DNA from: Saprospira sp. CCB-QB6
Lineage (GTDB): Bacteria; Bacteroidota; Bacteroidia; Chitinophagales; Saprospiraceae
Direction of reading: 5' to 3'
NCBI RefSeq assembly: GCF_028464065.1
Contig: NZ_CP116808.1
Coordinates: 1,135,886-1,199,885, forward strand
Length of the DNA: 64,000 bases
Position numbers and translations under genes: made by a program. The notes below the pieces were generated by a model. It did no database searches. It saw nothing but the letters and a program-made list of their open reading frames with translations, and had not been told where the DNA came from. How positions within the stretch are numbered: position 1 is the first letter of the stretch; the number at the start of each line of letters is the position of its first letter. This document shows positions 4,573 through 63,410 of this stretch, one piece after another.

Positions 4573-4603
4573 TCCCTCCCGATTTTTCTTGATATTCAAA
4601 CTT

Positions 4604-4637
4604 AGAGACCTTCTTTTCAGGAGGTCTCTTTTTTTTG
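4604..4637 (+). terminator. Rho-independent terminator of S8 peptidase gene
   Basis: Hairpin agagacc-ttcttttcagg-aggtctct followed by a T8 run that merges into the TTTTGGGG start of element copy 1. Confidence 0.7.
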
Positions 4638-8212: not shown

Positions 8213-8360
8213 TTTTGGGGCTGCCCCGGCCAAGGGCCGGGTCGGGCTGTATCGGGGCTCGCTGTTCGCTCGGCCCTGCGCGGGCTTTGCCCGCTGGGTC
8301 TGCGGCTTCGCCGCCCCCCTTTCCATCCCTCAGCCGAGGCGCTTTGCGCCTGCTCGCTGC
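8213..8360 (+). repeat. GC-rich structured interspersed element, copy 4 (subfamily I)
   Basis: TTTTGGGGCTGCCCCggccaagggccgggTCGGGCTGTatcggGGCTCGCTGTTCGCTCGGCCCTGCGcgggctttgcccgc...CCATCCCTCAGCC; preceded by a partial duplicate ggttgggggttgggga. Confidence 0.9.
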
Positions 8361-9010: not shown

Positions 9011-9171
9011 TGGTCCAAAAAATGGCGGCTTTGCCGCCTTGGCCGCAGGCCAAACGGCCTAGGGGCGTGAAGGGGTGGCCGAAGGCCAGACCGAAGCGCG
9101 CAGCGCTGAAGGGCCGAGCGAATAGCGAGCCCCGGAACGTAGCGCCGCAGCTTGCTGCGGAGGCCCCAAAA
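9011..9171 (-). repeat. GC-rich structured interspersed element, copy 5 (subfamily II)
   Basis: ...GGCCGAGCGAATAGCGAGCcccggaacgtagcgccgcagcttgctgcggaggccccAAAA; left end tggtccaaaaaa matches the AATTGGACCAAAA tail seen on other copies. Confidence 0.9.
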
Positions 9172-15039: not shown

Positions 15040-15282
15040 AGACCAATAAAGCCCTACTTTAGGAGCGAAGCGACTAGCTGAGGGATGGATAAAGGGGGGC
15101 GTAGGCCAGACCGAGCCGCTGTAAGCGGCGACAAAAAGGCTGAAGGCCGCAGTTCGATGACCGAAGGGAATAACGGCCGAGCGAGCAGCGATCCCTGACA
15201 ACCAGCCCCTAAAGGGGCGCCAGTTCGACGACCAACGGGAGTACCCCGCCCGACCCGCCCTTCGGGCGGGGCAGCCCCAAAA
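15040..15282 (-). repeat. GC-rich structured interspersed element, copy 6 (subfamily I, long variant about 230 bp)
   Basis: Reverse orientation, ends ...cccgacccgcccttcgggcggggcagccccAAAA; carries an extra about 90-bp internal module. About 93% identical to the inverted copy at 16841-17066. Confidence 0.9.
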
Positions 15283-16840: not shown

Positions 16841-17066
16841 TTTTCTGGGGCTGCCCCGCCCTGCAGGCGGGTCGGGCGGGGTACTCCCGTTGGTCGTCGA
16901 ACTGGCGCCCCTTTAGGGGCTGGTTGTCAGGGCTCGCTATTCGCTCGGCCGTTACTCCCTTCGGTCATCGAACTGCGGCCTTCAGCCTTGTTGCCACCGC
17001 TTACAGCGGCTCGGTCTGGCCTACGCCCCCCCTTTTCCATCCCTCAGCCAAGGCGCTGCGCGCCTT
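16841..17066 (+). repeat. GC-rich structured interspersed element, copy 7 (subfamily I, long variant)
   Basis: TTTTCTGGGGCTGCCCCgccctgcaggcgggTCGGGCggggtactcccgttggtcgtcgaactggcgcccctttaggggc...GCTCGCTATTCGCTCGGCC...CCATCCCTCAGCC; inverted partner of copy 6 across the cry gene. Confidence 0.9.
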
Positions 17067-19173: not shown

Positions 19174-19253
19174 ATGACCAGAAAATACCATGATGCACCG
19201 CCCTTTGTGGATACGCTATATATATTATTGTTTTTATCCTATGATGAGTAGGA

Positions 19254-19369
19254 TTTGGGGCCTCCTGCCTGCGGCAGGCGCTACCTTCGGCAGCTCGCAG
19301 GTCTGCTCGGCCCTGCGGCCCAAGGGCCTTGGTCTGCGGCTGCGCCGCACTGCCTACGATCGCTAGGCC
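19254..19369 (+). repeat. GC-rich structured interspersed element, copy 8 (subfamily II, core variant)
   Basis: TTTGGGGCCTCCtgcctgcggcagg...GCTCGCAGGTCTGCTCGGCCCTGCGgcccaagggcc...GGTCTGCGG...CGATCGCTAGGCC. Confidence 0.85.
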
Positions 19370-19437: not shown

Positions 19438-19568
19438 CATTGGCTGAGGGATGGAAAGCAGTGGCCGCAGGCCAGACCGAGGCGCTTTGCGCCGAAGGGC
19501 CGAGCGAATAGCGAGCTGCGACAACCAGCCCGCCGCAAGGGCCAAAGGCCCGCAGCGGAGGCCCCAAA
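19438..19568 (-). repeat. GC-rich structured interspersed element, copy 9 (hybrid: subfamily-II 5' part, subfamily-I 3' part)
   Basis: cattGGCTGAGGGATGGaaagcagtggccgcaggccagacc...GGCCGAGCGAATAGCGAGC...gcagcggaggccccAAA; head-to-head with copy 8. Confidence 0.85.
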
Positions 19569-20512
19569 TTATCGCCTTTATTATTGCCTTATTGCTGCCT
19601 GTATTGGGCTATGCCCAGCCCGTCGTCACCTTTTCTGCCGATAGCACCGAGCTTTTGATTGGAGACCAATTGACGGCCAAAATGCGCTTGGAGAGTCGAG
19701 AAGAATTGCTGGTGCGCTTGCCCAATCCCACGGAATATTGGGATAATAAATCGGTGGAAATCATTCGGCTTTCGGAGCAATTGGAGGAAACTAGCCCTGA
19801 GGGCCTCAATAGTTTTGAGAAAAAAATTACGCTGACTTTTTGGGATACGGGCCATTATCAGTTGCCTGATTTACCTTTTGTCTATCAAAAAGATGGAAAA
19901 GTAGACAGCATTTGGGTACAGGTTCCGATGATTCTGGTGAAATTTCCGGCAGGTATTCGGGGCGATTCTACTTATATGGCCCCCATTAAGGATATTATGG
20001 AGGAACCTCAGAGTTTTATGGAAAAACTGCTCGAATGGTTCTTTACTTATTTGCCCATTATTGCGGTGATTCTGCTGATCTTCTTTTTGGGTGGTTTGGG
20101 CTTTTTGGCTTATCTGCTGTACAAAAAGGCGCAGGAGCGCAAGGGACGAAAATCCCCAGAGCAACTGGCTCGTATGGAATTAGAGCGGCTTTTGGCCAAG
20201 GAGCATTTGGAGCGAAACGAGTGGGCGGACTATCACACGGGCATAAGTTGGATTATTCGCACTTATTTGCATCGTCGATTTAAAATTAAGGCATTAGAGG
20301 CGACGACCAATCAGCTTTTGGCTCAGGTGAGTTACGATCAGTTGGAGCAAACCTTAATTTTGGACCTTCGAGAAGTTTTGGAGACGGCGGATTTGGTCAA
20401 ATATGCCAAAGCCTCTCCCTTGGCCGCAGCTAATGATTTTGCCTTAAAATTTATTCATAAAATGTTGGAATATGTAGAGCAGCAGGAAGCGCTCCGCAAT
20501 AGTTCAAATTAA
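19451..20512 (+). CDS. Bat-operon membrane protein (signal peptide, central TM helix; BatX/DUF4381-like); true start uncertain
   Basis: Mature-like signal IIAFIIALLLPVLGYAQP begins at about 19569 immediately after element copy 9 with no in-frame ATG/GTG; the only upstream ATG (19451) lies inside the element. Confidence 0.55.
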   Translation: MESSGRRPDRGALRRRAERIASCDNQPAARAKGPQRRPQIIAFIIALLLPVLGYAQPVVTFSADSTELLIGDQLTAKMRLESREELLVRLPNPTEYWDNKSVEIIRLSEQLEETSPEGLNSFEKKITLTFWDTGHYQLPDLPFVYQKDGKVDSIWVQVPMILVKFPAGIRGDSTYMAPIKDIMEEPQSFMEKLLEWFFTYLPIIAVILLIFFLGGLGFLAYLLYKKAQERKGRKSPEQLARMELERLLAKEHLERNEWADYHTGISWIIRTYLHRRFKIKALEATTNQLLAQVSYDQLEQTLILDLREVLETADLVKYAKASPLAAANDFALKFIHKMLEYVEQQEALRNSSN

Positions 20513-24020: not shown

Positions 24021-24154
24021 GCCAAGCGCAGGCTGGCCTAGCGATGTGGAAGGGTGGCCCGAAGGGCCAGACCCAGCCGCCGAAGGCGGCGCAGGGCCGA
24101 GCAGAACTGCGAGCCCTGAAACGTAGCGCCGCAGCTTGCTGCGGAGGCCCCAAA
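24021..24154 (-). repeat. GC-rich structured interspersed element, copy 10 (subfamily II)
   Basis: ggcctagcgatgtgg...ggccagacc...GGCCGAGCAGAACTGCGAGCcctgaaacgtagcgccgcagcttgctgcggaggccccAAA. Confidence 0.9.
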
Positions 24155-24195
24155 TCAATATCTAAGTCAACAACTACCAGATTAAATCAGACGTT

Positions 24196-26716: not shown

Positions 26717-26850
26717 TTTTGGGGCCTCCGCAGCAAAGCTGCGGCGCTACGTTCCGGGGCTCGCTATTCGCTCGGCCCTTCGCAAAAAACAAGTTTTTGC
26801 TCGGTCTGGCCTACGGCCACCCCTACACATCGCTAGGCCAATTGGACCAA
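26717..26850 (+). repeat. GC-rich structured interspersed element, copy 11 (subfamily II)
   Basis: TTTTGGGGCCTCCGCagcaaagctgcgGCGCTACGTTCCGGGGCTCGCTATTCGCTCGGCC...GGTCTGGCCtacggccaCCCCTACACATCGCTAGGCCAATTGGACCAA. Confidence 0.9.
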
Positions 26851-29680: not shown

Positions 29681-29822
29681 GGCCATTTGGCCTAGCGATG
29701 TGTAGGGGTGGCCGAAGGCCAGACCAAAGCCGCCAAAGGCGGCTGCAGGGCCGAGCGAATAGCGAGCCCCGCAGCATAGCGGCGGCCGCCCGCCCTTTAA
29801 GGGGCGGCCGCGGGCCCCAAAA
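29681..29822 (-). repeat. GC-rich structured interspersed element, copy 12 (subfamily II)
   Basis: ggccatttGGCCTAGCGATGTGtaggggtggccgaaggccagacc...GGCCGAGCGAATAGCGAGCcccgcagcatagc...gggccccAAAA. Confidence 0.9.
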
Positions 29823-30572: not shown

Positions 30573-30586
30573 ATTTTAATCTAGCA

Positions 30587-30622
30587 AAAGCCGCCAGCCT
30601 AATCCGCTTGCGGCTTTTTTTT
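30587..30622 (+). terminator. Rho-independent terminator
   Basis: aagccgc-cagcctaatccgctt-gcggctt plus T8. Confidence 0.65.
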
Positions 30623-30682
30623 GCCCTTTTTTATCTGCTTTGGAACTTATCCAGAGGAGGCAGAGTTCTGCTTGCGCTCACA

Positions 30683-30705
30683 CTTAGTTTAAAATCTAAA
30701 CTAAG
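30683..30705. promoter_or_regulatory. Perfect 9-bp inverted repeat (cttagttta-aaatc-taaactaag) 30 bp upstream of MVP start; candidate operator
   Basis: Seen directly; lies in the promoter/5'UTR region of the MVP-like gene. Confidence 0.4.
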
Positions 30706-30734
30706 TCCATATTTAACCTCAAAATCATCCTATT

Positions 30735-33266
30735 ATGGGAGACAGCCGCGAACGTGATTTAGTCCTCGCCCCCAACGAGTACGCCTTTATTTCTGACCAA
30801 ACCAAGGGAAATGTCATTACTTATGTAGGGCCTTATAAAACCAGTATGGCTAATACGGACAAGCCCGTTTTTTTCAATAAAAAGACGAAAGCCTTTGACA
30901 TTTGCGATTTGGATGGCTCTATTCAGACCTTTTGCACGGCCCCAGAAGGCTGGTATATTATCCTGAAAAATCCTGCGATTGATAATAAACCGCCCCAAAT
31001 TGGGACCTCCAACCAGCTTTCTTCTTTGCAGATTGGGCGCAAGGTCAATTTACCTGGTCCCAACTTTTTTGCGCTTTGGCCGGGCCAGATGGCAGAAGTT
31101 TTAGAGGGCCATCATTTGCGCTCCAATGAGTATTTATTGGTCCGTGTGTATGAAGAGGAACAAGCACGAGCCAATTGGGATAATGCCGTAATTACGCCCC
31201 AACATACTCAACCCGAAGGGCTAGAAGACGAGCAGCAACCCAAAGATAGCATTGATGCCAACCGCCTAAGTATGGGCCAATTGCATGTGATAAAAGGAAC
31301 CAATGTTTCCTTTTATATTCCGCCCACAGGGGTTGAAGTGGTTCGAGACAAAAAAGGGAATTATGTCCGCTCTGCAGTGACTTTAGAGCGCCTAGAGTAT
31401 TGCATTTTGCTCGATGAAGATGGCAATAAACGCTATATACAAGGACCCGATGTGGTCTTTCCTCGCCCCACCGAACGCTTTATTGAGAAAAGTGGCAGCC
31501 GAAAATTTAAGGCGATTGAACTAGATGAAAATAGCGGGATTTATGTCAAAATCATTGCCCCCTATACCGAAAATGGCCAAAGCTATAAGGTAGGCGATGA
31601 GCTCTTTATTACGGGCCGAGAACAAATGATTTATTTTCCCCGCCCAGAGCAAGCCCTAATCAAATATGGCGAACAAGAGATCTATCAAGCGGTCGCTATT
31701 CCCCCCGGCGAGGGCCGCTATGTCTTGAATAGAAAGAGCGGAAAAATCAGCCTGCAAAAAGGGCCTGCCATGTTTTTGGCCGACCCCAGAGAGGAAATGA
31801 TTTTGCGCCGCATCCTTAGCCCCAAACAGGTAGAGCTTTGGTTCCCAGGCAATCAAGAAGCCTTGCAATACAACCTCCAACTCCAAGAACTCTCTAAACA
31901 ACAGCAGGTCCGCCTGCGAAAAGCCTCAAAGAAGCGGAATAAACTCAATTTGCCGCCTATGGCCCAACAACAACAGGCCCTTATTGATATGGATTTCTCG
32001 GAGGAGAATGAAGAAGAAGGCGAAAGCGTCTATGAAGGCATCGTCAGCAATTCCTTTTCTCGAAGCCGACAACCCCAAAACAATAATAGTCTGGTCCTCG
32101 ATAGCAAATATGAAGGTGCAGTTACCATCGATGCCTGGACCGGCTATGCTGTTTTGGTCACTAGCAAATTAGGCGACCGCAAAGTGGTGGTGGGCCCAAG
32201 CACTTACCTGCTCGATTATGACGAGGTTCTACAAGGCATTGAGCTCTCTACAGGCACCCCAAAATCTGATAATCAACTGATGCGCACCGTCTATCTCCGC
32301 ATCCTCAATAATAAGGTTTCTGATTTGGTGAGAGTGGAAACTGCCGACTTCTGCGAGCTGGATATCCACCTTTCTTATCGGGTCAATTTTACTGGCGATC
32401 CCGAAAAATGGTTTAATGTAGAGAATTATGTCAAGTTCCTGACCGACCACCTCCGCTCAGTCCTCCGCAATGCCATTAAGCAATATAAATTGGCCGATTT
32501 TTATGCCGAGGGAATTGCCGAATTGCGCAATATCGTCCTCGGTCCCCGAGCCGAAGGCGAGGAACATGACAGCCGCCGCCCTGGCCGACTATTTACCGAA
32601 AATGGTATGCATATCTATGAATTGGAGGTCCTTGATATAGAGATTCTAGACGAGGAAATCCAAGAGTTGCTCTTTGCCAGTAAACACCAAGATATTCGCA
32701 GCCAACTAGAGCTAGACAATAAGCGAAAAGAACTACTCTATAGCCAAGAGACGGAAGAAATGGCCCAGAAAATCGCCGCTAGCCGCTCCAAAACCAAACA
32801 GTTCGCCCTAGAACTCCAAGAAGCCGAAGAAAAACAGGCCCAAATGCTCAAACTGGCTAGCCAAGCCGCCCGCATTGACCTAGAACGCCTAGAACTCACG
32901 GCCCAAATGGAAATGCAAGAAAAAGCCCTAGCCGTTGCTCGCCTACAACGCCAAGATGAGGAAGAAGCTGGCCTACTCCAACTCGAGCTCAAAAAAGGTG
33001 CCCTCGAACAACGCCTCAAAGAATTGGAGGGAGAAGTACTGGCTGTGGTCCAAAAAGCAGAAGCTGTCAGCCCCGATCTGATTGCTGCCCTACAAGCTTT
33101 TGGCGACAAAGCCCTGGCCGAAAAAATGGCCGAAAGCATGGCTCCACTCTCTATTATCGGCGGCAAAAGTATTGTCGAGGTCTTTGGCAATCTGCTGGCC
33201 GGCAGTCCCCTCTCCTATCTACTAGATAAAAAAGGAGAAACTAAAGATCCTGGTTTAGAAGAGTAA
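30735..33266 (+). CDS. Major vault protein (MVP) homolog
   Basis: N-terminal MVP-type repeats (LVLAPNEYAFISDQTKGNVITYVGP); LDENSGIYVKI matches the MVP LDENEGIYVQD segment; ETAD shoulder motif; long C-terminal coiled-coil cap-helix region; 843 aa. Confidence 0.85.
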   Translation: MGDSRERDLVLAPNEYAFISDQTKGNVITYVGPYKTSMANTDKPVFFNKKTKAFDICDLDGSIQTFCTAPEGWYIILKNPAIDNKPPQIGTSNQLSSLQIGRKVNLPGPNFFALWPGQMAEVLEGHHLRSNEYLLVRVYEEEQARANWDNAVITPQHTQPEGLEDEQQPKDSIDANRLSMGQLHVIKGTNVSFYIPPTGVEVVRDKKGNYVRSAVTLERLEYCILLDEDGNKRYIQGPDVVFPRPTERFIEKSGSRKFKAIELDENSGIYVKIIAPYTENGQSYKVGDELFITGREQMIYFPRPEQALIKYGEQEIYQAVAIPPGEGRYVLNRKSGKISLQKGPAMFLADPREEMILRRILSPKQVELWFPGNQEALQYNLQLQELSKQQQVRLRKASKKRNKLNLPPMAQQQQALIDMDFSEENEEEGESVYEGIVSNSFSRSRQPQNNNSLVLDSKYEGAVTIDAWTGYAVLVTSKLGDRKVVVGPSTYLLDYDEVLQGIELSTGTPKSDNQLMRTVYLRILNNKVSDLVRVETADFCELDIHLSYRVNFTGDPEKWFNVENYVKFLTDHLRSVLRNAIKQYKLADFYAEGIAELRNIVLGPRAEGEEHDSRRPGRLFTENGMHIYELEVLDIEILDEEIQELLFASKHQDIRSQLELDNKRKELLYSQETEEMAQKIAASRSKTKQFALELQEAEEKQAQMLKLASQAARIDLERLELTAQMEMQEKALAVARLQRQDEEEAGLLQLELKKGALEQRLKELEGEVLAVVQKAEAVSPDLIAALQAFGDKALAEKMAESMAPLSIIGGKSIVEVFGNLLAGSPLSYLLDKKGETKDPGLEE

Positions 33267-33415
33267 TTTTTGGGGCCTCCCGCCTTCGGGGCGCTATGCT
33301 GCGGGGCTCGCTATTCGCTCGGCCCTGCAGCCGCCTTTGGCGGCTTTGGTCTGGCCTTCGGCCACCCCTTCACATCGCTAGGCCAGTTCTGCGGCCCAAA
33401 GCCGCAGTTGGGCCG
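33267..33415 (+). repeat. GC-rich structured interspersed element, copy 13 (subfamily II, extra 3' hairpin)
   Basis: TTTTTGGGGCCTCCcgccttcggggcgCTATGCTGCGGGGCTCGCTATTCGCTCGGCC...CCCCTTCACATCGCTAGGCCagttctgcggcccaaagccgcag. Confidence 0.9.
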
Positions 33416-33457
33416 ATCCCCCTAAGCAAAACCCTTTTATTGGCCCTATAATAAGCA

Positions 33458-35574: not shown

Positions 35575-35726
35575 TCTGCAGTGTACAGGCCCCGAAGGGG
35601 CCGCAGGCTGACTGGCTTGTAGGGGTGGCCCGAAGGGCCAGACCAAGGGGCGGGACGCCCCGCAGGGCCGAGCAGACTTGCGAGCCCCGAAAAGGCAGGA
35701 CCCGAAGCGCAGCGGAGGGGCAGCCC
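35575..35726 (-). repeat. GC-rich structured interspersed element, copy 14 (degenerate; in divergent promoter region)
   Basis: ...ggccagacc...GGCCGAGCAGACTTGCGAGCcccgaaaaggc...gaggggcagcccc; lacks the terminal AAAA. Confidence 0.75.
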
Positions 35727-35765
35727 CTACATATTAGAGCGGACCTTTTCATAACAACAACTATC

Positions 35766-39203: not shown

Positions 39204-39331
39204 TTTTGGGGCCTCCGCTGCGGCCAAAGGCCTTGCGGCGCTACGTTTCGGGGCTCGCAAGTCTGCTCGGCCCTGCGCCGCTAAAGCGGCTGGGTCTGGC
39301 CCTACGGGCCACCCCTACACATCGCTAGGCC
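39204..39331 (+). repeat. GC-rich structured interspersed element, copy 15 (subfamily II, core variant)
   Basis: TTTTGGGGCCTCCGCtgcggccaaaggccttgcgGCGCTACGTTTCGGGGCTCGCAAGTCTGCTCGGCC...GGTCTGGCC...CCCCTACACATCGCTAGGCC. Confidence 0.9.
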
Positions 39332-41647: not shown

Positions 41648-41765
41648 GGCCTAGCGATGCGACGGGGTGGCCGTCAGGCCAGACCAAGGCGGCTTCGCCG
41701 CCGCAGGGCCGAGCAGACCTGCGAGCCCCAAAGCGTAGCGCCTGCCGCAGGCAGGAGGCCCCAAA
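41648..41765 (-). repeat. GC-rich structured interspersed element, copy 16 (subfamily II, core variant)
   Basis: GGCCTAGCGATGcgacggggtggccgtcaggccagacc...GGCCGAGCAGACCTGCGAGCcccaaagcgtagcgcctgccgcaggcaggaggccccAAA. Confidence 0.9.
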
Positions 41766-41882
41766 TAAAAAGGCTGAAGTAAATTCTTGTTATCTTGCTG
41801 AAGCTTTGTTAAATTTGGGGCTTGTTTTTGGGGCTTAGGGTCCTGAGCAGATATTAACAAACCGTATTACGAATAATATATC

Positions 41883-42693: not shown

Positions 42694-42779
42694 GCCCAGG
42701 TGGTGGAATTGGTAGACACGCTACTTTGAGGGGGTAGTGCCTAATTACAGGCGTGCAAGTTCGACTCTTGTCCTGGGCA
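42694..42779 (+). tRNA. tRNA-Leu (anticodon GAG), long variable arm
   Basis: Manual fold: acceptor GCCCAGG/CCTGGGC, D-arm GTGG-AATTGGTAGA-CACG, anticodon stem CTACT/GGTAG with loop TTGAGGG (GAG), 17-nt variable arm, T-arm GCAAG-TTCGACT-CTTGT, discriminator A. Confidence 0.85.
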
Positions 42780-42786
42780 CACAAAA

Positions 42787-46604: not shown

Positions 46605-46633
46605 AAGGCTACTTTTCAGTAGCCTTTTTTTTT
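46605..46633 (+). terminator. Rho-independent terminator of tal/fsa gene
   Basis: aaggctact-tttc-agtagcctt plus T9 that merges into the TTTTGGGG of element copy 17. Confidence 0.75.
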
Positions 46634-46794
46634 GGGGCCTCCGCTGCGGCTTCGCCTTGCGGCGCTACGTTCCGCAGCTCGCTATTACTTGCTTCGCTGC
46701 GTCGGCTCCCGTTGGTCGGGTCGCTCGGCCCTGCGCCGCCTAAGGCGGCTTGGTCTGGCCTAACGGCCACTGCTGCACATCGCTAGGCCAATTG
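46629..46794 (+). repeat. GC-rich structured interspersed element, copy 17 (subfamily II, with about 30-bp insertion)
   Basis: TTTTGGGGCCTCCGCtgcggcttcgccttgcgGCGCTACGTTCCGCAGCTCGCTATTActtgcttcgctgcgtcggctcccgttggtcgggtCGCTCGGCC...CTGCTGCACATCGCTAGGCCAATTG. Confidence 0.9.
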
Positions 46795-47228: not shown

Positions 47229-47362
47229 GAGCGAAGCGACTGGCCTAGCGATGCGAAAGGGGGCGGCGAAGCCGCAGACCAAGGCCGTCAGGCCGCAGGG
47301 CCGAGCAGACCTGCGAGCCCTGAAGCGTAGCGCCTGCAGCTTTGCTGCAGGAGGCCCCAAAA
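47229..47362 (-). repeat. GC-rich structured interspersed element, copy 18 (subfamily II, core variant)
   Basis: gagcgaagcgactGGCCTAGCGATGcgaaagggggcggcgaagccgcagacc...GGCCGAGCAGACCTGCGAGCcctgaagcgtagcgcctgcagctttgctgcaggaggccccAAAA. Confidence 0.9.
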
Positions 47363-50794: not shown

Positions 50795-50956
50795 TTTTGG
50801 GGCTGCCCCGCCCTACGGGCGGGTCGGGCTGTCTCGCAGCTCGCTATTCGCTCGGCCCTGCGCGCGCAAAGCGCCTTGGTCTGGCCTGACGGCCACTGCT
50901 GCCCATCCCTCAGCCTGCGGCCCTTCGGGCCTGCTCTACGCAATTGGACCAGAAAA
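50795..50956 (+). repeat. GC-rich structured interspersed element, copy 19 (subfamily I with AATTGGACCA tail)
   Basis: TTTTGGGGCTGCCCCgccctacgggcgggTCGGGCTGTctcgcaGCTCGCTATTCGCTCGGCCCTGCGcgcgcaaagcgcc...CCCATCCCTCAGCCtgcggcccttcgggcctgctctacgCAATTGGACCAGAAAA. Confidence 0.9.
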
Positions 50957-52825: not shown

Positions 52826-52955
52826 CTTGGCCTAGCGATGTGCAGCAGTGGCCGTCAGGCCAGACCAAGGCGCTGCAAGCGCCGCAGGGCCGAGCGAATA
52901 GCGAGCTGCGAAACGTAGCGCCGCAAGGCAAAGCCGCAGCGGAGGCCCCAAAAAA
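52826..52955 (-). repeat. GC-rich structured interspersed element, copy 20 (subfamily II; in divergent promoter region dnaX / DUF1573)
   Basis: cttGGCCTAGCGATGTGcagcagtggccgtcaggccagacc...GGCCGAGCGAATAGCGAGCtgcgaaacgtagcgccgcaaggcaaagccgcagcggaggccccAAAAAA. Confidence 0.9.
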
Positions 52956-57218: not shown

Positions 57219-57404
57219 TTTTGGTCCAATTGCGGTTTTGCAGGGCGCGAAGCCGCCGCAAAGGAGCGCAGCGACGCGGCTGAGGGATGGAAAGTGGGGC
57301 GGCGCAGCCGCAGACCGAGCGGGCTTTGCCCGCGAAGGGCCGAGCGAATAGCGAGCCACGACACAGCCCGACCCGAGCGAAGCGAGGGGCAGCCCCAAAA
57401 AAAA
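57219..57404 (-). repeat. GC-rich structured interspersed element, copy 22 (subfamily I, long variant)
   Basis: TTTTGGTCCAATTGcgg...gagcgcagcgacgcGGCTGAGGGATGGaaagtggggcggcgcagccgcagaccgagcgggctttgcccgcgaaGGGCCGAGCGAATAGCGAGCcacgACACAGCCCGAcccgagcgaagcgaGGGGCAGCCCCAAAAAAAA. Confidence 0.9.
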
Positions 57405-57435
57405 TCCCCTCTCAAAATGAAAGGGGATCTTGATT

Positions 57436-59568
57436 TTATTTATTCAGCTTGATATAATCCTTTAGGATAAAGGCGACTTCTTCTAGATAGGCATCTTTTG
57501 CTAAGTTTTCGTGCCATTTCTTAAAGCTATTGGCCTTTGTGCTATCGCTAGCAATTTGGTCCTTATCGGCATTGAGGTTATAAATATTAAAGTCCTCAAT
57601 TTTGGGCATCATATCTTTGTAATGTTCGGCCTCTTTATCCGTTTGGGCCTGATGTGCCTCATAATCTTCAAGTTGAAGAGGATAAACAGTTTCTTCTTGT
57701 TGTTTTTCCAGCCATTTTCCGTGTTCTTCTAGCAGCTGAAAAGTTTTGCTTTTTTCTTGGCGTTTCTCGCTTTTGCTCAAGATTTTGGGCAAAGTCTTTA
57801 TCTTCTTTTTGTGATAGTTGGCGGGGTCAATTTCGGACCAAGCCATAGGATAATCCTCATCTTTTTCGCCCACTTTGAGGTAGCTATAGCTACCAGGCAA
57901 CACGATATCGGGTTCAACGCCTTTGAGCTGTGTAGAGCCGCCATTGATGCGATAAAACTTTTGAATAGTAATTTTGAGGCTACCTAGTGCGCCCAAATCT
58001 TTGTAGCGGGGCGGAACCACGGCATCGAGGTCCATAAAGCGTTGCACCGTTCCCTTACCAAAAGTAGAGGGGCTTGTGCCTACGATAATGGCGCGGCCAT
58101 AATCTTGCAAAGCGGCGGCCATAATTTCGGAAGCAGAAGCCGAGTACGCATTAACGAGGATAATCAATGGCCCTGTGTAGAGCGCTCCAGCATTCTGATC
58201 TTCTAATACGTACGGTCGATTATCTCGGCTTTTAACTTGAACCACAGGCCCTCGATCAATAAAAAGCCCCGTCATTTTAACTACATCGGAGAGTGATCCT
58301 CCACCATTAAAACGAAGGTCGATTACAATCCCATCAATATCTTCTTTAAGTAATTTTCGGACCTCTTCCTCTACATCAACAGCGCAGCGGCGACCTTTTG
58401 GATCTTGGAAATCGGCATAAAAGCTACGCAAATCGATCAAACCCATTTTTACATCGGCTGCTTTATGTTCGATAATTGCAGACTTAGCATAACTCTCTTC
58501 AAGGACGACTACATCTCGGATGATAGGAATAATTTTGGTTTCGCCGCTTGTTTTCTTCACCGTCAGGCGCACCTCGGTTCCTTTTTTTCCGCGAATCATA
58601 GGAAGTACATCATCAATGCGCATATCAACTACATTGACCGCCTCTTCGTTGCCCTGGGCTACCTTAATAATTTTGTCATTGACTTCTAGTTCACCTTGTT
58701 TCCAAGAAGCAGAACCTGGAACAATATTCACTACCTTAATATAGCCATCTTCTTGGCGCAGTTGGGCCCCTATTCCCTCCAATTTACCCGACATACGGAT
58801 ATTAAAATTCTCCTTTTCGAGTGGGGGAAAATAGCCAGAATGGGGTTCATGTGCATTCGCAAAAGCATTTACATAATTGGCAATGCGGTCATCTCGGCCA
58901 TCTTTTTTGATATTTTCGGACCATTCCCGATAGCTTTTGAGCAACTTTTCCCGCTCTTCTTTTTCAATCACTTCAAAGCTTTTAATACTATCTAGCTCTT
59001 CCCCCTTTTCTTGAGCCTTTTCTTGGCGCTCTAAGCGATCGTGTACCCGACCAAGCACTTGCAATTTAAGGTAATCGTGCCAACGAGCTTTAAGGGCTTC
59101 AGGACTATCTAAAAACTCTAATTTTTCGCCATCCATCTGAAACTCTCCTTTTTCAGCAAAGCTAAAAGGCTTCGCCAGAATTTCTTCATAATAGCCTTCT
59201 ACTTGCTTAATTCGTTGATCAAAGGTATTATTGACCAGATTAAAAAAGCTAAAATCGCCAGCTTGAGCTGCATCATCTAATTTGAATTTAAAATCTTCAA
59301 ACTTTTTGACATCATCGGCCAAGAAAAAACGCTTATTCAGGTCCATTCGCTTCAAATAAAGCGCATAAACTTTTTCCGAAAACTCATCATTGATGGCTTC
59401 AGGCGCATAATGATTGTAGCGCATGCTTTGCAGCACCACTTCAAGCAGCAGTTCTTCTCTATTCGAGAGATCCCCACTAATTTGGGGTTGGTTATTTTGC
59501 CCTTGCTGCCAACGGAAGGCAATCAGCAGGCTGCAAGCGGCAGTAATTAAGAGGAGTTTACGGATCAT
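57436..59568 (-). CDS. C-terminal processing peptidase (S41 family, tail-specific protease)
   Basis: PDZ region plus S41 catalytic LVNAYSASASEIMAAALQDYGRAIIVGTSPSTFGKGTVQ; DLRFNGGGS; 710 aa. Confidence 0.9.
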   Translation of the reverse strand: MIRKLLLITAACSLLIAFRWQQGQNNQPQISGDLSNREELLLEVVLQSMRYNHYAPEAINDEFSEKVYALYLKRMDLNKRFFLADDVKKFEDFKFKLDDAAQAGDFSFFNLVNNTFDQRIKQVEGYYEEILAKPFSFAEKGEFQMDGEKLEFLDSPEALKARWHDYLKLQVLGRVHDRLERQEKAQEKGEELDSIKSFEVIEKEEREKLLKSYREWSENIKKDGRDDRIANYVNAFANAHEPHSGYFPPLEKENFNIRMSGKLEGIGAQLRQEDGYIKVVNIVPGSASWKQGELEVNDKIIKVAQGNEEAVNVVDMRIDDVLPMIRGKKGTEVRLTVKKTSGETKIIPIIRDVVVLEESYAKSAIIEHKAADVKMGLIDLRSFYADFQDPKGRRCAVDVEEEVRKLLKEDIDGIVIDLRFNGGGSLSDVVKMTGLFIDRGPVVQVKSRDNRPYVLEDQNAGALYTGPLIILVNAYSASASEIMAAALQDYGRAIIVGTSPSTFGKGTVQRFMDLDAVVPPRYKDLGALGSLKITIQKFYRINGGSTQLKGVEPDIVLPGSYSYLKVGEKDEDYPMAWSEIDPANYHKKKIKTLPKILSKSEKRQEKSKTFQLLEEHGKWLEKQQEETVYPLQLEDYEAHQAQTDKEAEHYKDMMPKIEDFNIYNLNADKDQIASDSTKANSFKKWHENLAKDAYLEEVAFILKDYIKLNK

Positions 59569-59799
59569 AACTTATAGTTCGGTATAATTTATTAAGCCAG
59601 GGGCAAAAAAGAAGATAGCGTATTTTTGTTAAAATTTGCAGGCTACTTCTTCTATTGGGCTATAAAATAGGGCCATTCATTTTGCTTTAACAAATTTTAA
59701 TACGTTAGAACGATATTTTTAGTTGATTTTTTAGAAAAATTTGGGCCAAATCTATGCTGAAGTAGATAAAGCGCAACAATTTTGAGGAAAGGGCGCCTA

Positions 59800-59936
59800 T
59801 TTTGGGGCTGCCCCTCGCTTCGCTCGGGTCGGGCTGTATCGCAGCTCGCTATTCGCTCGGCCCTGCGCGGGCTTCGCCCGCTGGGTCTGGCCTACGGCCA
59901 CTGCTGTCCATCCCTCAGCCTGCGGCCCTTTGGGCC
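59800..59936 (+). repeat. GC-rich structured interspersed element, copy 23 (subfamily I)
   Basis: TTTTGGGGCTGCCCCtcgcttcgctcgggTCGGGCTGTatcgcaGCTCGCTATTCGCTCGGCCCTGCGcgggcttcgcccgc...GTCCATCCCTCAGCCtgcggccctttgggcc. Confidence 0.9.
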
Positions 59937-59998
59937 TATAAAACGCAAAAAGCCCCAATTTGCTTAAGCAAATTGGGGCAAATCAGATCAAACAAGAC

Positions 59999-60613
59999 CT
60001 ATTGTACCGTTTCGTTTAGTACTTGTAGGCGCTGAGAAACTTCTTGGCCAGCCTCATTATAAAGACGGAAAATATAATATCCATCTTCAAAGGTTTTAAG
60101 GTTAACAGCCTTATAATTATTACCTGGGGTTAGGCTCATCTTATTTTGAGCCACCAATTCGAGGCTTTGCGCCTCATAGATTTCAAATTCTAGTTCTTGA
60201 GCATCTTTAGCATTCACTCCAAAAAGAAAATAACCTTCTTGAACAGGTTCTGGAGACATACTCAAAGTTACTGGCAACTCCTTTTGTTTATTATCGGCTC
60301 CCATCAAGCTAGCCAATAAACGTTGGCTAAAAGCGGCATCACCTGCTTTTCGGTCAGCTTCTGCCAAAGCCTCTACTGGTTCTTTAAATACCTCTGCGGG
60401 AATTTGTCCTTCTGCTTGGGCCAAAGGCAAACGATCAAATTTTTCTACCACCAAAGTCTTTACATCTAGTTTGCCTCGTTGAGCAGACTCTGTAATGATT
60501 TTTTCGGTTTTAACTGCTGTAGTTGCACTGCCAGCAGCATTATCACAGTCACATTGACAGCCATAGGCTAGAAAAGCGATGGCAATAGGTAGGTAAATTG
60601 CTTTTTTAAACAT
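59999..60613 (-). CDS. Small lipoprotein-signal protein with T9SS-CTD-like C-terminal beta domain (paralog 1 of 4)
   Basis: Signal MFKKAIYLPIAIAFLAYGC; C-terminal FEIYEAQSLELVAQNKMSLTPGNNYKAVNLKTFEDGYYIFRLYNEAGQEVSQRLQV resembles Por-secretion tail. Confidence 0.6.
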   Translation of the reverse strand: MFKKAIYLPIAIAFLAYGCQCDCDNAAGSATTAVKTEKIITESAQRGKLDVKTLVVEKFDRLPLAQAEGQIPAEVFKEPVEALAEADRKAGDAAFSQRLLASLMGADNKQKELPVTLSMSPEPVQEGYFLFGVNAKDAQELEFEIYEAQSLELVAQNKMSLTPGNNYKAVNLKTFEDGYYIFRLYNEAGQEVSQRLQVLNETVQ

Positions 60614-60733
60614 CCTTCTTAATTTTAGGGCTAACGAACTATTTAAAATAAATTCATTTTAAGGAAAAAAAGAGCGTACTGTTCCACAGCCGCTCTTTTT
60701 AAAAATTGTTCAGACAAAAACAGCGTCTGAATA

Positions 60734-61276
60734 TTAGTCACGCTTGATAACGACTGTATTAGTCATTTCTTTACCAGCTTCATCTTTAAGCTTGAAGAAA
60801 TATTTACCTTCTTCTAGGCTAGATACTTTTAGTGCTTTGTAGTTATGACCTTGGTTGAGGCTAAATTTGTTGTTAGCGGCTAGCTCGAAACCTTCTTCAT
60901 CGTACATTTCGAACATAACATCTTTAGCTTCTTCTGCTTTAAGGCCAAAAACGAACATATCATCTACAGCTTTATCTTCCATAGTAAGTTCGATACCTGC
61001 AAGCTGATCTTCTTTTTCAGCAGACATCAAAGAGCTGTGAATATCATTTACAGCATCCTCGTTTTGTTTTGCACTAGCTTTTTTAGCTTCTACAACAAAA
61101 ACGTCTTCAGCAGTAATAGCAACATCTGCACCTTGAAACTGGACAGTTTGCACACCACGTGTACTGTTTACATTTTGGATATTTACAGCAGTAGCGGCCT
61201 GCTGGCTGTCAGAGCCACAAGAGCCCATAGTAAATAAAACAGCGGCAGCAAGGAGGAAGCTTGACAACTTTTTCAT
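60734..61276 (-). CDS. Small lipoprotein-signal protein with T9SS-CTD-like C-terminal domain (paralog 2)
   Basis: MKKLSSFLLAAAVLFTMGSC; C-terminal FEMYDEEGFELAANNKFSLNQGHNYKALKVSSLEEGKYFFKLKDEAGKEMTNTVVIKRD. Confidence 0.65.
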   Translation of the reverse strand: MKKLSSFLLAAAVLFTMGSCGSDSQQAATAVNIQNVNSTRGVQTVQFQGADVAITAEDVFVVEAKKASAKQNEDAVNDIHSSLMSAEKEDQLAGIELTMEDKAVDDMFVFGLKAEEAKDVMFEMYDEEGFELAANNKFSLNQGHNYKALKVSSLEEGKYFFKLKDEAGKEMTNTVVIKRD

Positions 61277-61442
61277 AAGAAGTGGTTTTAATGTGATAGT
61301 AAATAATAGGCATTGGCTGTTGAAGCCAATTGTTTTGGGGTATAATTGCTATTGAAACAAGGGGTTCAATTAGCGCTATATACCTTTATGACAATAATAC
61401 TGACTTTGTTACCTTTAAAGCCATTTTTTTTCAAAAAAAAGC

Positions 61443-61985
61443 TCAGACCTTCACTAAACCTAAATAGATTATTTCCAAAGAATTAGCCACAGTTAGAATA
61501 TAAGGTCCTTCTTCTAGGCTAGAGGTAGAAATAACTAGGTTTGTTTTTCCATTTTTAATGGGAATAGTTTCTTTGGCTAAGCGGTTAAAGCCATCTTGAT
61601 CAAAGAACTGTAGCTCTATATCGATTTCTTCTTCTGTTTCTAATTGCAAATAAAGACGATCTTGCCCTTCTTTCTTGTACGCCAATTGGATAGGGTTTTC
61701 AGCTAGTTCATTGGCTTTAGTCAATAATTCTCTTAGTTGTGCTTGACTTTTACTGGATAAGCTTCCCTTCCCTCTTAAAAAGAGTTTTACCTCTTTTAAT
61801 TTGGTATCTACCTCATCTAGTTGAGCTAATTGGGGAAAGTCTGAAAAATGGAGTTGATGTCCTCGTACACTACTATCTGCCTGCAAGCCTTCAATATTAA
61901 CTTCTGGGTTAGGCGTGCCCCCTGGTCCACAAGCAGTGACCAAAAAGAGCAGGACAAAATAAATAATACGATACTTTAGAAACAT
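61443..61985 (-). CDS. Small lipoprotein-signal protein, divergent paralog 3 (CTD-like end LEEGPYILTV)
   Basis: Start chosen at MFLKYRIIYFVLLFLVTAC; C-terminal IELQFFDQDGFNRLAKETIPIKNGKTNLVISTSSLEEGPYILTV. Confidence 0.55.
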   Translation of the reverse strand: MFLKYRIIYFVLLFLVTACGPGGTPNPEVNIEGLQADSSVRGHQLHFSDFPQLAQLDEVDTKLKEVKLFLRGKGSLSSKSQAQLRELLTKANELAENPIQLAYKKEGQDRLYLQLETEEEIDIELQFFDQDGFNRLAKETIPIKNGKTNLVISTSSLEEGPYILTVANSLEIIYLGLVKV

Positions 61986-62195
61986 TGGGAGTGGTTTTGT
62001 AGACCAGTTGTCTATGTTAGAAGTGTAGTTTAACAAGCTAGAGATCCCTCTCTTTTTAGACTGTCACTTAATAGCACTTCTAGGAGACTTAAATATAAGC
62101 ATATTTAACGAGCCTTTAAGGTATTTTAGCACAAAAAGGACAGCTTTTTAGTAGGCTGTCCTTTAGGCTCATCATTGGCTTATCTGGATAATAAA

Positions 62196-62738
62196 CTACT
62201 CTCTTTCAATAGAGAACATTTCATTCAATTCGGCTCCAGCTTGATTTTTAAGCTTAAAGTAGTACGTTCCTTCTTTTAGGCTACTGACTTTGATCGCTTT
62301 GTAGTTTTTGCCTTCTGTTACTTCGATGCTATTGTTGGCCGCTAGTTCAAAGCCCTCTTCATCATACATCTCAAAAGTGAGGTTTTCATCAGCATTTGAT
62401 TCTAGAGAAAAGGCAAAAATGTCATTGATAGGACCTTCGGCCATAGTCATTTTAACATCTAGTTTTTGGGCCTCATTTTCAGCTTTAGCTAAGGAACGCA
62501 TGATTCCCGTTACTGCCTCTTCATTTTGCTTATCTTTAGCTTTAAGGATAATCATATCCTCAGCTGCAATACTTACCGCATCGCCAGCAATGCTAAATTT
62601 TTGAGCACCACGAGTTTCTTCTAGATTGATGCTTGCGGCCATACTGCTCCCAGCCTTCTTGGCCAAGTCATCGCCACAACTACTCATTGTAAAAAGAACA
62701 ATTGCGCTGAAGAGGAATAGTAAATTGAGTTTCTTCAT
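62196..62738 (-). CDS. Small lipoprotein-signal protein with T9SS-CTD-like C-terminal domain (paralog 4)
   Basis: MKKLNLLFLFSAIVLFTMSSC; about 50% identical to paralog 2 (FEMYDEEGFELAANNSIEVTEGKNYKAIKVSSLKEGTYYFKLKNQAGAEL). Confidence 0.65.
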   Translation of the reverse strand: MKKLNLLFLFSAIVLFTMSSCGDDLAKKAGSSMAASINLEETRGAQKFSIAGDAVSIAAEDMIILKAKDKQNEEAVTGIMRSLAKAENEAQKLDVKMTMAEGPINDIFAFSLESNADENLTFEMYDEEGFELAANNSIEVTEGKNYKAIKVSSLKEGTYYFKLKNQAGAELNEMFSIERE

Positions 62739-62860
62739 GGTTGGTGTGATTTAAGAGTTGCTTTTTTAAAATTTTCTATTGATTTTACTATATTATATCG
62801 GTTGGGCTACTGCCAAACCGTCTAATATTCTAACATTTTCTCGTCCTAATATCAAAAATA

Positions 62861-63175
62861 ATGCAAAACCAAGATAAACAAGAACTTAATATTCAAATTT
62901 CTGAAGAAGTAGCTGATGGCATCTATTCTAACCTAGCTATTATCAGCCACTCTCCTGATGAGGTAGTTTTAGACTTCATTCGTTTGGTACCGAATATTGA
63001 TCATGCACGAGTGAAATCTCGTATATTAATGAGCCCTCATCATGCCAAGCGTTTGTTGGCCGCTTTGTCTGATAATCTACAGCGTTATGAGCAAGAATTT
63101 GGTCCCATTCAGGATCCAAGAAATCCTAGTCGAAATAGTAGTTTATCTTTTTCTGGCCCTAAAGGCCAAGCTTAA
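62861..63175 (+). CDS. DUF3467 family protein
   Basis: GIYSNLAIISHSPDEVVLDF motif typical of DUF3467; 104 aa. Confidence 0.65.
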   Translation: MQNQDKQELNIQISEEVADGIYSNLAIISHSPDEVVLDFIRLVPNIDHARVKSRILMSPHHAKRLLAALSDNLQRYEQEFGPIQDPRNPSRNSSLSFSGPKGQA

Positions 63176-63198
63176 ATTAATGCGCCCAAAATCAAGCC

Positions 63199-63226
63199 AA
63201 AAGCCCTTTTTAAGGGCTTTTTTTTA
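63199..63226 (+). terminator. Rho-independent terminator
   Basis: aaagccc-ttttta-agggcttt plus T8. Confidence 0.7.
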
Positions 63227-63240
63227 TGAGCTAAATTAGC

Positions 63241-63410
63241 CTTGGCAGGCGGCTTGGCCGCCGCAGAGGAGCGCAGCGACTCGACTGGCTGAGGGATGGA
63301 AAGTGGGGCGGCGAAGCCGCAGACCGAGCCAGCTTGCTGGCGAAGGGCCGAGCGATCAGCGAGCCACGACACAGCCCGACCCGCCCAAAGGGCGGGGCAG
63401 CCCCAAAAAA
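63241..63410 (-). repeat. GC-rich structured interspersed element, copy 24 (subfamily I, long variant; sister of copy 22)
   Basis: ...gagcgcagcgactcgactGGCTGAGGGATGGaaagtggggcggcgaagccgcagaccgagccagcttgctggcgaaGGGCCGAGCGATCAGCGAGCcacgACACAGCCCGAcccgcccaaagggcgGGGCAGCCCCAAAAAA. Confidence 0.9.

Follow-up and report, generated by a model that had tools for sequence, protein, structure and literature searches.

A 64,000-nucleotide stretch of the Saprospira sp. CCB-QB6 chromosome (NZ_CP116808.1, positions 1,135,886 to 1,199,885; hereafter the window) carries 23 copies of a GC-rich repeated element in which selection has preserved a fold while the stem sequences changed, the long-range helices having undergone true compensatory change. 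The same copies were recovered by BLAST of the window against itself, by regular-expression parsing and with a covariance model, whose E-values for them range from 2e-25 to 2.5e-06 (2e-14 or better for 21 of the 23). The core is 112–124 nt long, except in two copies of 203 nt and one of 156 nt that contain inserted modules, and its motif GCTCGCTATTCGCTCGGCC occurs 15 times in the window at up to three mismatches, against 0.02 occurrences expected. Together with the counts returned by the model, the density in the window of one copy per 2.8 kb implies about 1,500 copies per Saprospira genome, or 4–5% of the genome sequence. The family appears best described as a multi-helix repeat resembling repetitive extragenic palindromes (REP) and bacterial interspersed mosaic elements (BIME) in kind, and as far as the searched literature goes it was previously undescribed.

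Two further genomes were available for comparison. A scan of reference genomes with the core motif gave matches mostly in Saprospira grandis DSM 2844, and the covariance model identified 208 copies in the first 100 loci of that scan, nearly all of them in DSM 2844 loci. Orthologous loci of the window and DSM 2844 are 81–84% identical, indicating that the window comes from a different Saprospira lineage. Among metagenomes, genuine copies were found in one sample only (Ga0193958), which represents a third Saprospira genome that is 85–89% identical to the window; six pattern matches in viral contigs included no true element. Outside these genomes, a diverged relative of the family is present in Lewinellaceae genomes (loci L013, L018, L021, L041, L066, L076, L078, L083 and L084 of our scans) and one copy was seen in a species with 70% protein identity.

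We refer to the element strand beginning TTTTGGGGC as strand O and to its complement as strand F. Along strand O the order is a GGGGC(TG/CT)CC head, a hairpin (HP1), a linker, the conserved motif GCTCGC..T..GCTCGGCCCT (J), a second hairpin (HP2), GGTCTG, a third hairpin (HP3) and then ..CATCCCTCAGCC in subfamily A or ..CATCGCTAGGCC in subfamily B, after which comes a variable tail of additional hairpin modules. In the predicted fold, helix P1 closes the element, HP1 forms the 5′ hairpin, and an irregular helix (P1b-P2) leads to a three-way junction that bears the conserved motif as 20–22 unpaired nucleotides, helix P3 capped by HP2, and HP3. The core has seven helices, two of them long-range. 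RNAalifold, applied to 20 of the window copies, gave P1 as GGCTG/CAGCC in subfamily A and GGCCT/AGGCC in subfamily B, a P1b pair that flips between G-C and C-G from one subfamily to the other, P2 as the pairing of the four bases just 5′ of CTCGC with the four bases just 3′ of HP3, and P3 as the helix that closes HP2.

The segment 57,219–63,410, on which an initial annotation of this DNA had concentrated, contains three copies, 57278–57400 (−), 59800–59920 (+) and 63287–63408 (−), which are laid out as follows.

57219–57277, minus strand: tail of copy 57278(−), with the optional modules GCGTCGCTGCGCTCC, another hairpin and a terminal AATTGGACCAAAA (as read on the minus strand)
57278–57396, minus strand: core of copy 57278(−), numbered copy 22 in the initial annotation; covariance-model match of 107.5 bits
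Helices of copy 57278, plus-strand coordinates: P1 57278–57282 with 57390–57394; P2 57294–57297 with 57356–57359
Hairpins and motif of copy 57278, plus-strand coordinates: HP3 57299–57311; HP2 57319–57333; J 57334–57357; HP1 57372–57388
57397–57404, minus strand: A-run on the plus strand (T-run on the element strand) adjoining the head of copy 57278
59800–59920, plus strand: copy 59800(+), with a T-run at 59800–59803 and the core at 59804–59920; covariance-model match of 115.7 bits
59921–59947, plus strand: tail module of copy 59800(+), TGCG-hairpin-CTATAAAA-CGCA, a recurrent tail type
63240–63286, minus strand: tail of copy 63287(−), an GTCGCTGCGCTCC module and another hairpin
63287–63408, minus strand: copy 63287(−), numbered copy 24 in the initial annotation; covariance-model match of 107.6 bits
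Helices of copy 63287, plus-strand coordinates: P1 63287–63291 with 63398–63402; P2 63303–63306 with 63364–63367
Hairpins of copy 63287, plus-strand coordinates: HP3 63308–63320; HP2 63328–63341; HP1 63380–63396

For copy 57278 the minimum-free-energy fold of the plus strand is the consensus structure. The A-run beside its head also serves as the terminator T-tract of a peptidase gene at 57436–59568 (−). Copy 59800(+) has its head towards the start of that gene, and 9 nt separate the head of copy 63287(−) from the stop codon of the right-hand gene.

The argument for selection rests on the long-range helices. When 266 copies were aligned by a sequence-only hidden Markov model, P1, whose strands are about 108 nt apart, P1b, and P2, whose strands are about 62 nt apart, were found to be 94–99% Watson-Crick paired, against 44–63% expected under independence. 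Two of the P1 pairs alternate between CG (141 copies) and TA (82), and between TA (126), GC (74) and CG (22), and the triplets seen in P2 comprise GGG/CCC (77), AGG/CCT (63), GCA/TGC (49), GTG/CAC (18), GCG/CGC (8) and GCC/GGC (5). An all-against-all mutual-information scan of 74 variable columns ranked the predicted partner first of 73 for eight of the nine long-range columns, with partners 60–109 nt apart, and additional signals at column pairs 37-111, 38-110 and 41-107 indicate that P1b and P2 form a single irregular helix. Which P2 allele a copy carries has almost no relation to its J variant, P1 allele or HP3 type, markers that lie between or beside the paired strands, and shared ancestry cannot therefore account for the complementarity of P2.

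A formal covariation count pointed the same way. In 132 model-aligned copies 95.3% of paired cells were complementary, compared with 71.5% in shuffled alignments, and the covariation score was 0.541 as against 0.152 in shuffles and 0.04–0.12 when partners were slid by one to three columns; none of 500 shuffles reached the observed value, although kinship among copies can inflate the significance of such a test. In the same alignment 22 of 30 pairs have changed on both sides, and one-sided changes of the G-U type number only 0–2 per pair. The hairpins are highly diverse, with 92 distinct HP2 sequences among 171 copies, 74 HP1 sequences among 167 and 33 HP3 sequences among 180, and around 30 internal mismatches were counted in some 2,665 hairpin stem pairs. 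Distant relatives keep the fold with other letters, P1 being GCGTG/CACGC in Lewinellaceae and P2 being AUAG/CUAU in the species with 70% protein identity. In strength the evidence of covariation matches that for accepted RNA families, yet G-U pairs are almost missing.

Two model columns that flank HP2, 66 and 84 of 122 (for instance window positions 59865 and 59883), also covary, as T/C (79 copies), G/T (78) and G/G (72). The signal might stem from non-canonical pairing or from a marker linked to the subfamilies. The Lewinellaceae repeat has its own layout, TTTTGGGCGTGCCCC-HP1-GTCGGTCCCTTCCAGGCTCGCAAGTCTGCTCGGCCCTGCGGGCT...CCAGGCACCTCACGC, with GCGTG/CACGC as closing helix, and there CCCTTCCAGGC is a direct repeat.

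The elements are also conserved in place. DSM 2844 has an orthologous copy at the identical position for each of the ten window copies that overlap the DNA fetched for comparison, and 11 of 13 positions are shared between the window and the third genome. Four-fold degenerate sites in the neighbouring peptidase gene are just 49% identical between the window and DSM 2844, and 58% of four-fold sites are identical in the comparison with the third genome. Between orthologues in the window and DSM 2844, J together with the 5′ strand of P3 is 94% identical, the 3′ strand of P3 together with TCTG is 100% identical, and HP3, HP1 and HP2 are 89%, 61% and 65% identical, respectively. P2 differs in four orthologous pairs and is complementary in every one of them, as in GCAG/CTGC compared with GCGG/CCGC, or GTGG/CCAC compared with GGGG/CCCC.

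Complementarity could in principle have arisen with no selection on structure, if hairpins were generated by template switching or copying and the covariation merely recorded subfamily ancestry. The hairpins would fit such an origin, since the two arms are no more than 15 nt apart and are exchanged together and the stems have hardly any mismatches, and relatedness can inflate shuffle tests. However, covariation between pairs 60–109 nt apart is as strong as between adjacent columns and stronger than with the markers between them, the slid controls collapse, P2 has changed in a compensatory manner in orthologous copies, the linkers are 94–100% conserved when neutral sites are 49% identical, and distant lineages retain the fold with different letters. 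We give this explanation almost no credence.

The hairpins on which the initial annotation had built its case tell a different story from the long-range helices. It had reported that homologous slots hold different self-complementary hairpins, and all of the strings it quoted were found: gcgggctttgcccgc at 57319–57333 and cccgagcgaagcgaggg at 57372–57388 on the plus strand, with ccagcttgctgg within 63328–63341 and ccgcccaaagggcgg within 63380–63396 in the sister copy. These sequences belong to copies 57278 and 63287; their numbering as copies 22 and 24 does not hold, there being 23 copies in the window. Its inference of selection on structure stands, strongly, mainly through the covariation of P1, P1b and P2 and the conservation of orthologues, which it had not cited. 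The hairpins it quoted, which it had taken as stem-preserving replacement and hence as a hallmark of structured RNA or protein-recognised hairpin DNA, give weaker evidence than it had assumed, since they differ mostly by swaps of the whole hairpin, between orthologues as well, rather than by stepwise compensation. The swapped hairpins are often variants common elsewhere in the family, which is nearer to the caveat, also in that annotation, that unrelated insertions or a copying mechanism might be responsible. It had further taken certain linkers as constant and single-stranded; TCGGGCTGT, one of these, is specific to one subfamily (the other has GCGCTACGT) and lies within the long-range irregular helix.

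Comparison of orthologues shows how such contrasts arise. Whole hairpins are replaced while the flanking linkers remain identical. The HP2 of copy 57278 is CGGGCAAAGCCCG in the window, whereas DSM 2844 has CCAGCAAGCTGG, which is more frequent than any other HP2 in the family; this copy belongs to subfamily A in the window and to subfamily B in DSM 2844, with P1 and P2 switched coherently, and its GCGTCGCTGCGCTCC tail module is missing from the DSM 2844 orthologue, the remainder of the tail being conserved. Copy 59800 has orthologues in both DSM 2844 and the metagenome-derived genome, with HP1 and HP2 swapped, and the HP1 contrast among them, CCCTCGCTTCGCTCGGG versus CCCGCCCTTTGGGCGGG, is exactly the contrast that had been drawn between copies 22 and 24. 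A 36-nt J insert, TTACTTGCTTCGCTGCGTCGGCTCCCGTTGGTCGGG, is common to window copy 46630 and the third genome's orthologue of 59800 (locus L141, 3456–3612), two copies that are not orthologous to each other. In the distant relatives a triloop caps P3 directly, which makes HP2 look like an insertion into that loop. Copies therefore exchange modules, probably and most simply via ectopic gene conversion anchored in the conserved linkers, with nested insertions in addition. Since hairpins are exchanged whole, hairpin contrasts alone say little about selection, and it is the long-range helices and the conservation in place that carry the argument.

We next consider which strand folds. Strand F, folded alone, has the consensus architecture as its minimum-free-energy structure in four of four copies, with DNA and with RNA parameters, whereas strand O misfolds. 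Mismatches point in the same direction, A/C outnumbering G/T on strand O (equivalent to G-U on strand F) by 11 to 1 in P2 and by 11 to 1 in the hairpins. Loops on strand O are TTC (122), TGC (96) and TTT (61), their complements being rare, so that strand F displays GAA, GCA and AAA closed by C-G. GAA, GCA and GTA loops closed by C-G are extra-stable DNA mini-hairpins and are not classic RNA tetraloops. In favour of strand O, a G-T pair in P3 has been kept in three lineages. The initial annotation had proposed G-U tolerance as a test between a DNA-level cruciform and an RNA structure; tolerance is close to zero on both strands. This is unusual for an RNA read in one sense only, and the near absence of one-sided changes suggests that both senses must pair. 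The strand evidence is thus mixed and we do not claim a single functional strand; the form in which these repeats would work, RNA, single-stranded DNA or the two together, can be tested directly in an organism that is culturable.

The head of the element has a characteristic setting. A T-run of 3–9 nt precedes the GGGGC head in 191 of 217 copies. In the third genome an empty site (window 4572–4640 compared with about 1940–2000 of locus L187) has a terminator hairpin and eight T, followed by unrelated sequence. The empty site retains the T-run, which is thus the T-tract of a pre-existing terminator, and the element proper begins at GGGGC. The only terminal inverted repeat is TTTTGG...CCAAAA, present in 53 of 217 copies. 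No target duplication was visible on inspection, with the 3′ boundary undefined and no empty site that is clean on both flanks. GTAG, on strand F beside HP1, occurs in 80 of 266 copies, and the others have CTAT or CGGGCTGT at this place.

These features bring to mind a selfish, non-autonomous element that would move as single-stranded DNA in the manner of IS200/IS605 elements or of REP sequences and their dimers (REPINs), which are mobilised by REP-associated tyrosine transposases (RAYT). Its fold would be recognised by a trans-acting HUH/Y1-type enzyme encoded elsewhere, it would insert 3′ of a T-run without duplication, and its conservation would reflect selection for mobility together with gene conversion rather than a host function. 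Such an origin is consistent with an element that begins exactly behind a pre-existing T-run, with the lack of any observed target duplication or strong terminal inverted repeat, with C-G-closed GAA/GCA/GTA triloops of the DNA mini-hairpin type on strand F and with the near absence of G-U. Hairpin and subfamily swaps show sequence exchange among copies, there is some turnover (two of 13 positions differ in the third genome), and REPs likewise have inverted neighbours (PMC3733652).

The search for a mobilising enzyme was negative. A hidden Markov model built from four solved IS200/IS605 TnpA proteins found no Y1 transposase, and nothing at E≤10, in the 1.06 Mb searched (equal to about 19% of a Saprospira genome), RAYTs being distant from the query proteins; the RAYT or IS200-like gene that the initial annotation had suggested looking for was not found in this DNA. 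An all-against-all comparison of 341 open reading frames (ORFs) between copies revealed no recurrent family and no transposase, and the idea that tail-to-tail pairs are transposase-carrying transposons was rejected on the same comparison and on the similarity of partners, which does not exceed that of random pairs. The GTAG tag is found in only the 80 copies noted above, there is no chromosomal orientation bias of the kind that insertion into the lagging-strand template would give, and of the 23 positions compared, 21 have been kept between genomes in which neutral sites are 49–58% identical. Nor does selfish mobility predict the difference between head-in and tail-in intervals described below. 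We regard it as a serious possibility, though on balance an unlikely one.

The arrangement of copies along the chromosome is strongly non-random. We compared the 23 window copies with those in loci L001–L121 (DSM 2844) and L132–L211 (metagenome Ga0193958). In the window 19 of 22 adjacent pairs are in opposite orientation, in DSM 2844 154 of 176 (p = 1e-25) and in the third genome 78 of 90 (87% for the two further genomes), and every pair less than 1 kb apart is inverted (42/42). Tail-to-tail intervals in DSM 2844 have a median of 1.2 kb, with 40 of 102 below 1 kb, and head-to-head intervals a median of 3.25 kb, with 2 of 71 below 1 kb. The third genome repeats this difference, and across genomes the medians are 0.7–1.2 kb tail-to-tail and approximately 3.25–3.5 kb head-to-head.

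Heads are set tight against genes, after a stop codon or about 10–45 nt ahead of a start codon. Of 219 heads, 98 follow the stop codon of a co-oriented ORF by no more than 60 nt (by about 14 nt or less in 55 of them), and another 100 precede an ORF that reads away, at 8–289 nt from its start and in half of the cases at no more than 43 nt. An ORF boundary is reached at a median distance of 36 nt from the head and of 99 nt from the tail, and individual heads lie 23–36 nt from start codons or 0–14 nt from stop codons. Neighbouring inverted copies therefore bracket coding blocks of about 3.2 kb with their heads inwards, and a coding block tends to bear heads at both of its ends or at neither. No arrangement in which orientation alternates and heads abut coding blocks has been described for REPs or for miniature inverted-repeat transposable elements (MITEs).

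Several simple explanations for this arrangement were tried and rejected. Orientation is not set by gene direction, since a run of plus-strand genes at 19–33 kb carries copies in the order + − − + − +, nor by replichore, as plus and minus copies are about equally frequent in every 0.5-Mb bin of the DSM 2844 chromosome. Separate subfamilies at starts and at stops were likewise rejected, there being no difference in subfamily, P2 allele, J variant or loop type. Pairing between inverted neighbours is unlikely to be a selected feature, because neighbouring partners are no more alike than random pairs (0.547 versus 0.557) and P1 and P2 covary intramolecularly.

The remaining copies in the window, which like the three listed above rest on covariance-model matches, are as follows.

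4633–4748, plus strand: directly behind a terminator T-run; missing at the orthologous site of the third genome
5174–5295, minus strand: a two-gene block is present or absent right beside the head
8213–8335, plus strand: identified by the covariance model
9056–9171, minus strand: identified by the covariance model
15076–15282, minus strand: 203-nt core with two inserted modules of the GGTTACTCCCTTCGGTCGTCGAACTG type
16843–17049, plus strand: 203-nt core with two inserted modules, as in 15076–15282
19253–19369, plus strand: one half of a tail-to-tail doublet; a DSM 2844 orthologue exists
19442–19569, minus strand: second half of the doublet; a chimera of a B-type 5′ end and an A-type 3′ end, as a result of which two P1 pairs are broken
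24035–24155, minus strand: covariance model and comparison with the DSM 2844 orthologue
26717–26839, plus strand: HP2 is AT-rich
29689–29822, minus strand: head 34 nt upstream of a start codon
33268–33384, plus strand: 2 nt past a stop codon; present or absent jointly with the gene at 30735–33266
35606–35731, minus strand: identified by the covariance model
39204–39331, plus strand: identified by the covariance model
41648–41766, minus strand: identified by the covariance model
46630–46789, plus strand: 36-nt insertion within the J motif
47242–47362, minus strand: identified by the covariance model
50795–50915, plus strand: covariance model and comparison with the DSM 2844 orthologue
52829–52953, minus strand: head 23 nt upstream of a start codon
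56327–56447, plus strand: first base directly after a stop codon

The module inserted twice in both of the 203-nt copies consists of GGTTACTCCCTTCGGTCGTCGAACTG, a hairpin and TTGTTGT. It is found in addition in the tails of other copies (L071, L081, L097) and may be a separate small repeat family nested in the main one. Between copies 59800(+) and 63287(−), four tandem paralogous genes of about 180–205 codons occupy 59999–62738 on the minus strand, followed by a DUF3467 gene at 62861–63175 on the plus strand; one of the four-gene paralogues in the orthologous region of DSM 2844 has a weak Por_Secre_tail match.

Two indels separate the window from the third genome beside elements. One, at 5311–6751, starts about 10 nt from the head of copy 5174(−), and the other, at 30573–33443, comprises an 843-codon gene and copy 33268(+). 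The elements might accordingly be recombination sites for gene blocks, loosely integron-like, with the heads as junctions of gain and loss; this would account for the bracketing and for heads that are tight against coding blocks. The case is built on these two events only, and the bracketed blocks include ordinary core genes in conserved order. The elements are, moreover, spread across the whole chromosome, with no same-orientation arrays, no integrase nearby and no recurrent ORF between copies, and we consider such a role very improbable.

A role in DNA architecture deserves somewhat more weight but is still improbable. Here both strands would extrude, or gyrase or a nucleoid protein would bind the 120–140 bp, and each inverted pair would enclose a coding block in a topological or looped domain. 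There is precedent in the binding of gyrase and IHF to BIMEs and in REP325/HU. If both DNA strands are to fold, covariation has to be restricted to Watson-Crick pairs, as observed, and the independence of orientation from gene direction and the ‘both ends or neither’ bracketing of ~3.2-kb blocks in three genomes would also be in keeping with it. A symmetric cruciform, however, predicts neither the strong asymmetry of loop polarity (TTC 122, TGC 96 and TTT 61 on one strand) nor the excess of A/C over G/T mismatches. Extrusion of a 120-bp multi-branched structure from duplex DNA would presumably be energetically demanding, and no protein partner is known.

The reading that we tentatively prefer, with somewhat less than even confidence, is that the element works at transcription-unit ends, with both senses being read. 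Strand F would form a structured 5′ leader that ends ...GCCCCAAAA about 25 nt before the AUG, and strand O, beginning TTTTGGGGC, would form a 3′ trailer directly behind the stop codon. In both senses the mRNA would be protected or insulated by a stable structure at its end, as it is by REP/BIME sequences at 3′ ends. If one pool of sequences is used in both senses, only Watson-Crick pairs, foldable either way, would be tolerated, and this would explain the near absence of G-U. Where a head is 23–36 nt from a start codon a promoter would not fit in between, and such an element must, in the F sense, be part of the 5′ leader; in the O sense, elements must come after stop codons unless a terminator stands between. 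End structures functioning in two senses would explain the alternation of copies, their independence from the strand of the genes and their intolerance of G-U.

A number of observations weigh against a role at transcript ends. Transcription of the elements is deduced from geometry alone. Start-adjacent and stop-adjacent copies are alike in subfamily, P2 allele, J variant and loop type, and loop polarity is fixed to the element and not to the sense that would be transcribed; the GAA/GCA/GTA loops of strand F suit DNA mini-hairpins, not classic RNA tetraloops. Promoter boxes beyond the tails are only weakly enriched at start-adjacent copies (21/75, compared with 15/87 at stop-adjacent ones), as are terminators beyond the tails at stop-adjacent copies (16/87, compared with 6/75 at start-adjacent ones), although both trends run the way that was predicted. 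Several stop-adjacent copies sit just past an intrinsic terminator, a position in which they may be transcribed little. An insertion preference for T-runs or A-runs near gene ends could alone place heads against genes, and the coupling of heads at both ends or neither lacks a mechanistic explanation.

We also entertain, as a more speculative proposal that is probably incorrect as it stands, that the inverted head-in pairs, of which there would be about 750, constitute a genome-wide system delimiting transcription units, the two members acting jointly at the ends of a block. Such a system would work as complementary 5′ and 3′ mRNA end structures or as paired DNA insulators, and, if real, paired delimiting would be a principle of bacterial genome organisation without a described counterpart. 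If our account of the family is correct, 4–5% of the genome of a free-living bacterium is one structured element held in place by selection across species. The findings raise the questions of how hundreds of copies swap modules and yet keep the fold, and of whether paired elements physically delimit transcription units. At a practical level, the covariance model can be used for annotation, and the elements break short-read Saprospira assemblies. Short-read Logan contigs carrying the peptidase gene (L122–L124) extend for about 2.4 kb and stop at the repeats on either side, indicating that the family fragments such assemblies.

The family was compared with known structured RNAs and repeats. A search of the whole window against Rfam 15 gave zero matches at the gathering score and, at E≤5, none over any element body; a single chance-level match (PyrR, E 3.5, 23.7 bits against a gathering score of 54) covers only the last five bases of copy 57278. 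A tRNA-derived element was rejected, the sole tRNA that ARAGORN finds in the window being a tRNA-Leu (anticodon GAG) at 42694–42780. No description of the family was found in the literature on Saprospira repeats, REP and RAYT, a search that was incomplete and is not proof of novelty.

The closest parallels are with REP/BIME sequences of Enterobacteria and REPINs of Pseudomonas, which are likewise abundant, GC-rich, hairpin-forming and strictly intergenic, are mosaics of hairpins and conserved linkers, and often lie just downstream of genes; the roles proposed for them, mRNA stabilisation and DNA topology, are a further likeness. REPs mostly form head-to-head and tail-to-tail dimers and avoid head-to-tail ones (PMC3733652). 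The analogy with REP and RAYT that the initial annotation had drawn is thus apt for the hairpin repeats and the inverted neighbours. It fails for the unit itself, which in REP/REPIN is a single 20–40 nt palindrome and here spans 112–124 nt with two covarying long-range helices and a three-way junction, and for the tag, since GTAG or CGTC is conserved in REPs whereas GTAG occurs in 80 of 266 copies here. Alternation extends over kilobases in Saprospira and brackets gene blocks, whereas in REPs it is found within clusters, tens of bases apart. REPINs are mobilised by RAYT, and for the Saprospira family no RAYT gene was found in the 1.06 Mb (equal to about 19% of a Saprospira genome) searched. 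The likeness to REP/RAYT therefore holds in the sense of ‘works like’, while membership is unsupported given the unit size, the distribution of GTAG and the lack so far of a RAYT.

Other mobile or recombining elements share fewer features. Palindrome-associated transposable elements (PATEs) derived from IS200/IS605 also insert directly 3′ of a short specific sequence, here the T-run, with no target duplication seen, and have hairpins that would form in single-stranded DNA. They differ in having two subterminal hairpins, whereas the Saprospira structure spans the entire element, for which in addition no Y1 transposase was detected in the DNA searched and no replication-related orientation bias was seen. 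MITEs such as Correia/NEMIS, ERIC and RUP resemble the family in being 100–200 nt long, intergenic and of high copy number, and in being co-transcribed with neighbouring genes (as would be the case here), some of them affecting mRNA processing. In contrast to MITEs, the family has weak terminal inverted repeats or none, TTTTGG...CCAAAA being found in about one copy in four; no duplication of the target site was seen, the element is not a single long hairpin, and its positions are conserved across species. Integron attC sites, for example the Vibrio cholerae repeats, are also about 120 nt long, conserve structure over sequence, fold as a single strand and lie beside gene cassettes, to which the predicted fold and the gene blocks correspond here; but attC sites have one orientation and form one array beside an integrase, whereas the Saprospira copies alternate, are genome-wide and flank core genes. 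Finally, the mobile GC clusters and hairpin elements of organelles are likewise GC-rich hairpins in an AT-richer genome, apparently inserted or exchanged as units and even nested in loops, but they are isolated hairpins, whereas those of Saprospira are held in a multi-helix scaffold with long-range covariation.

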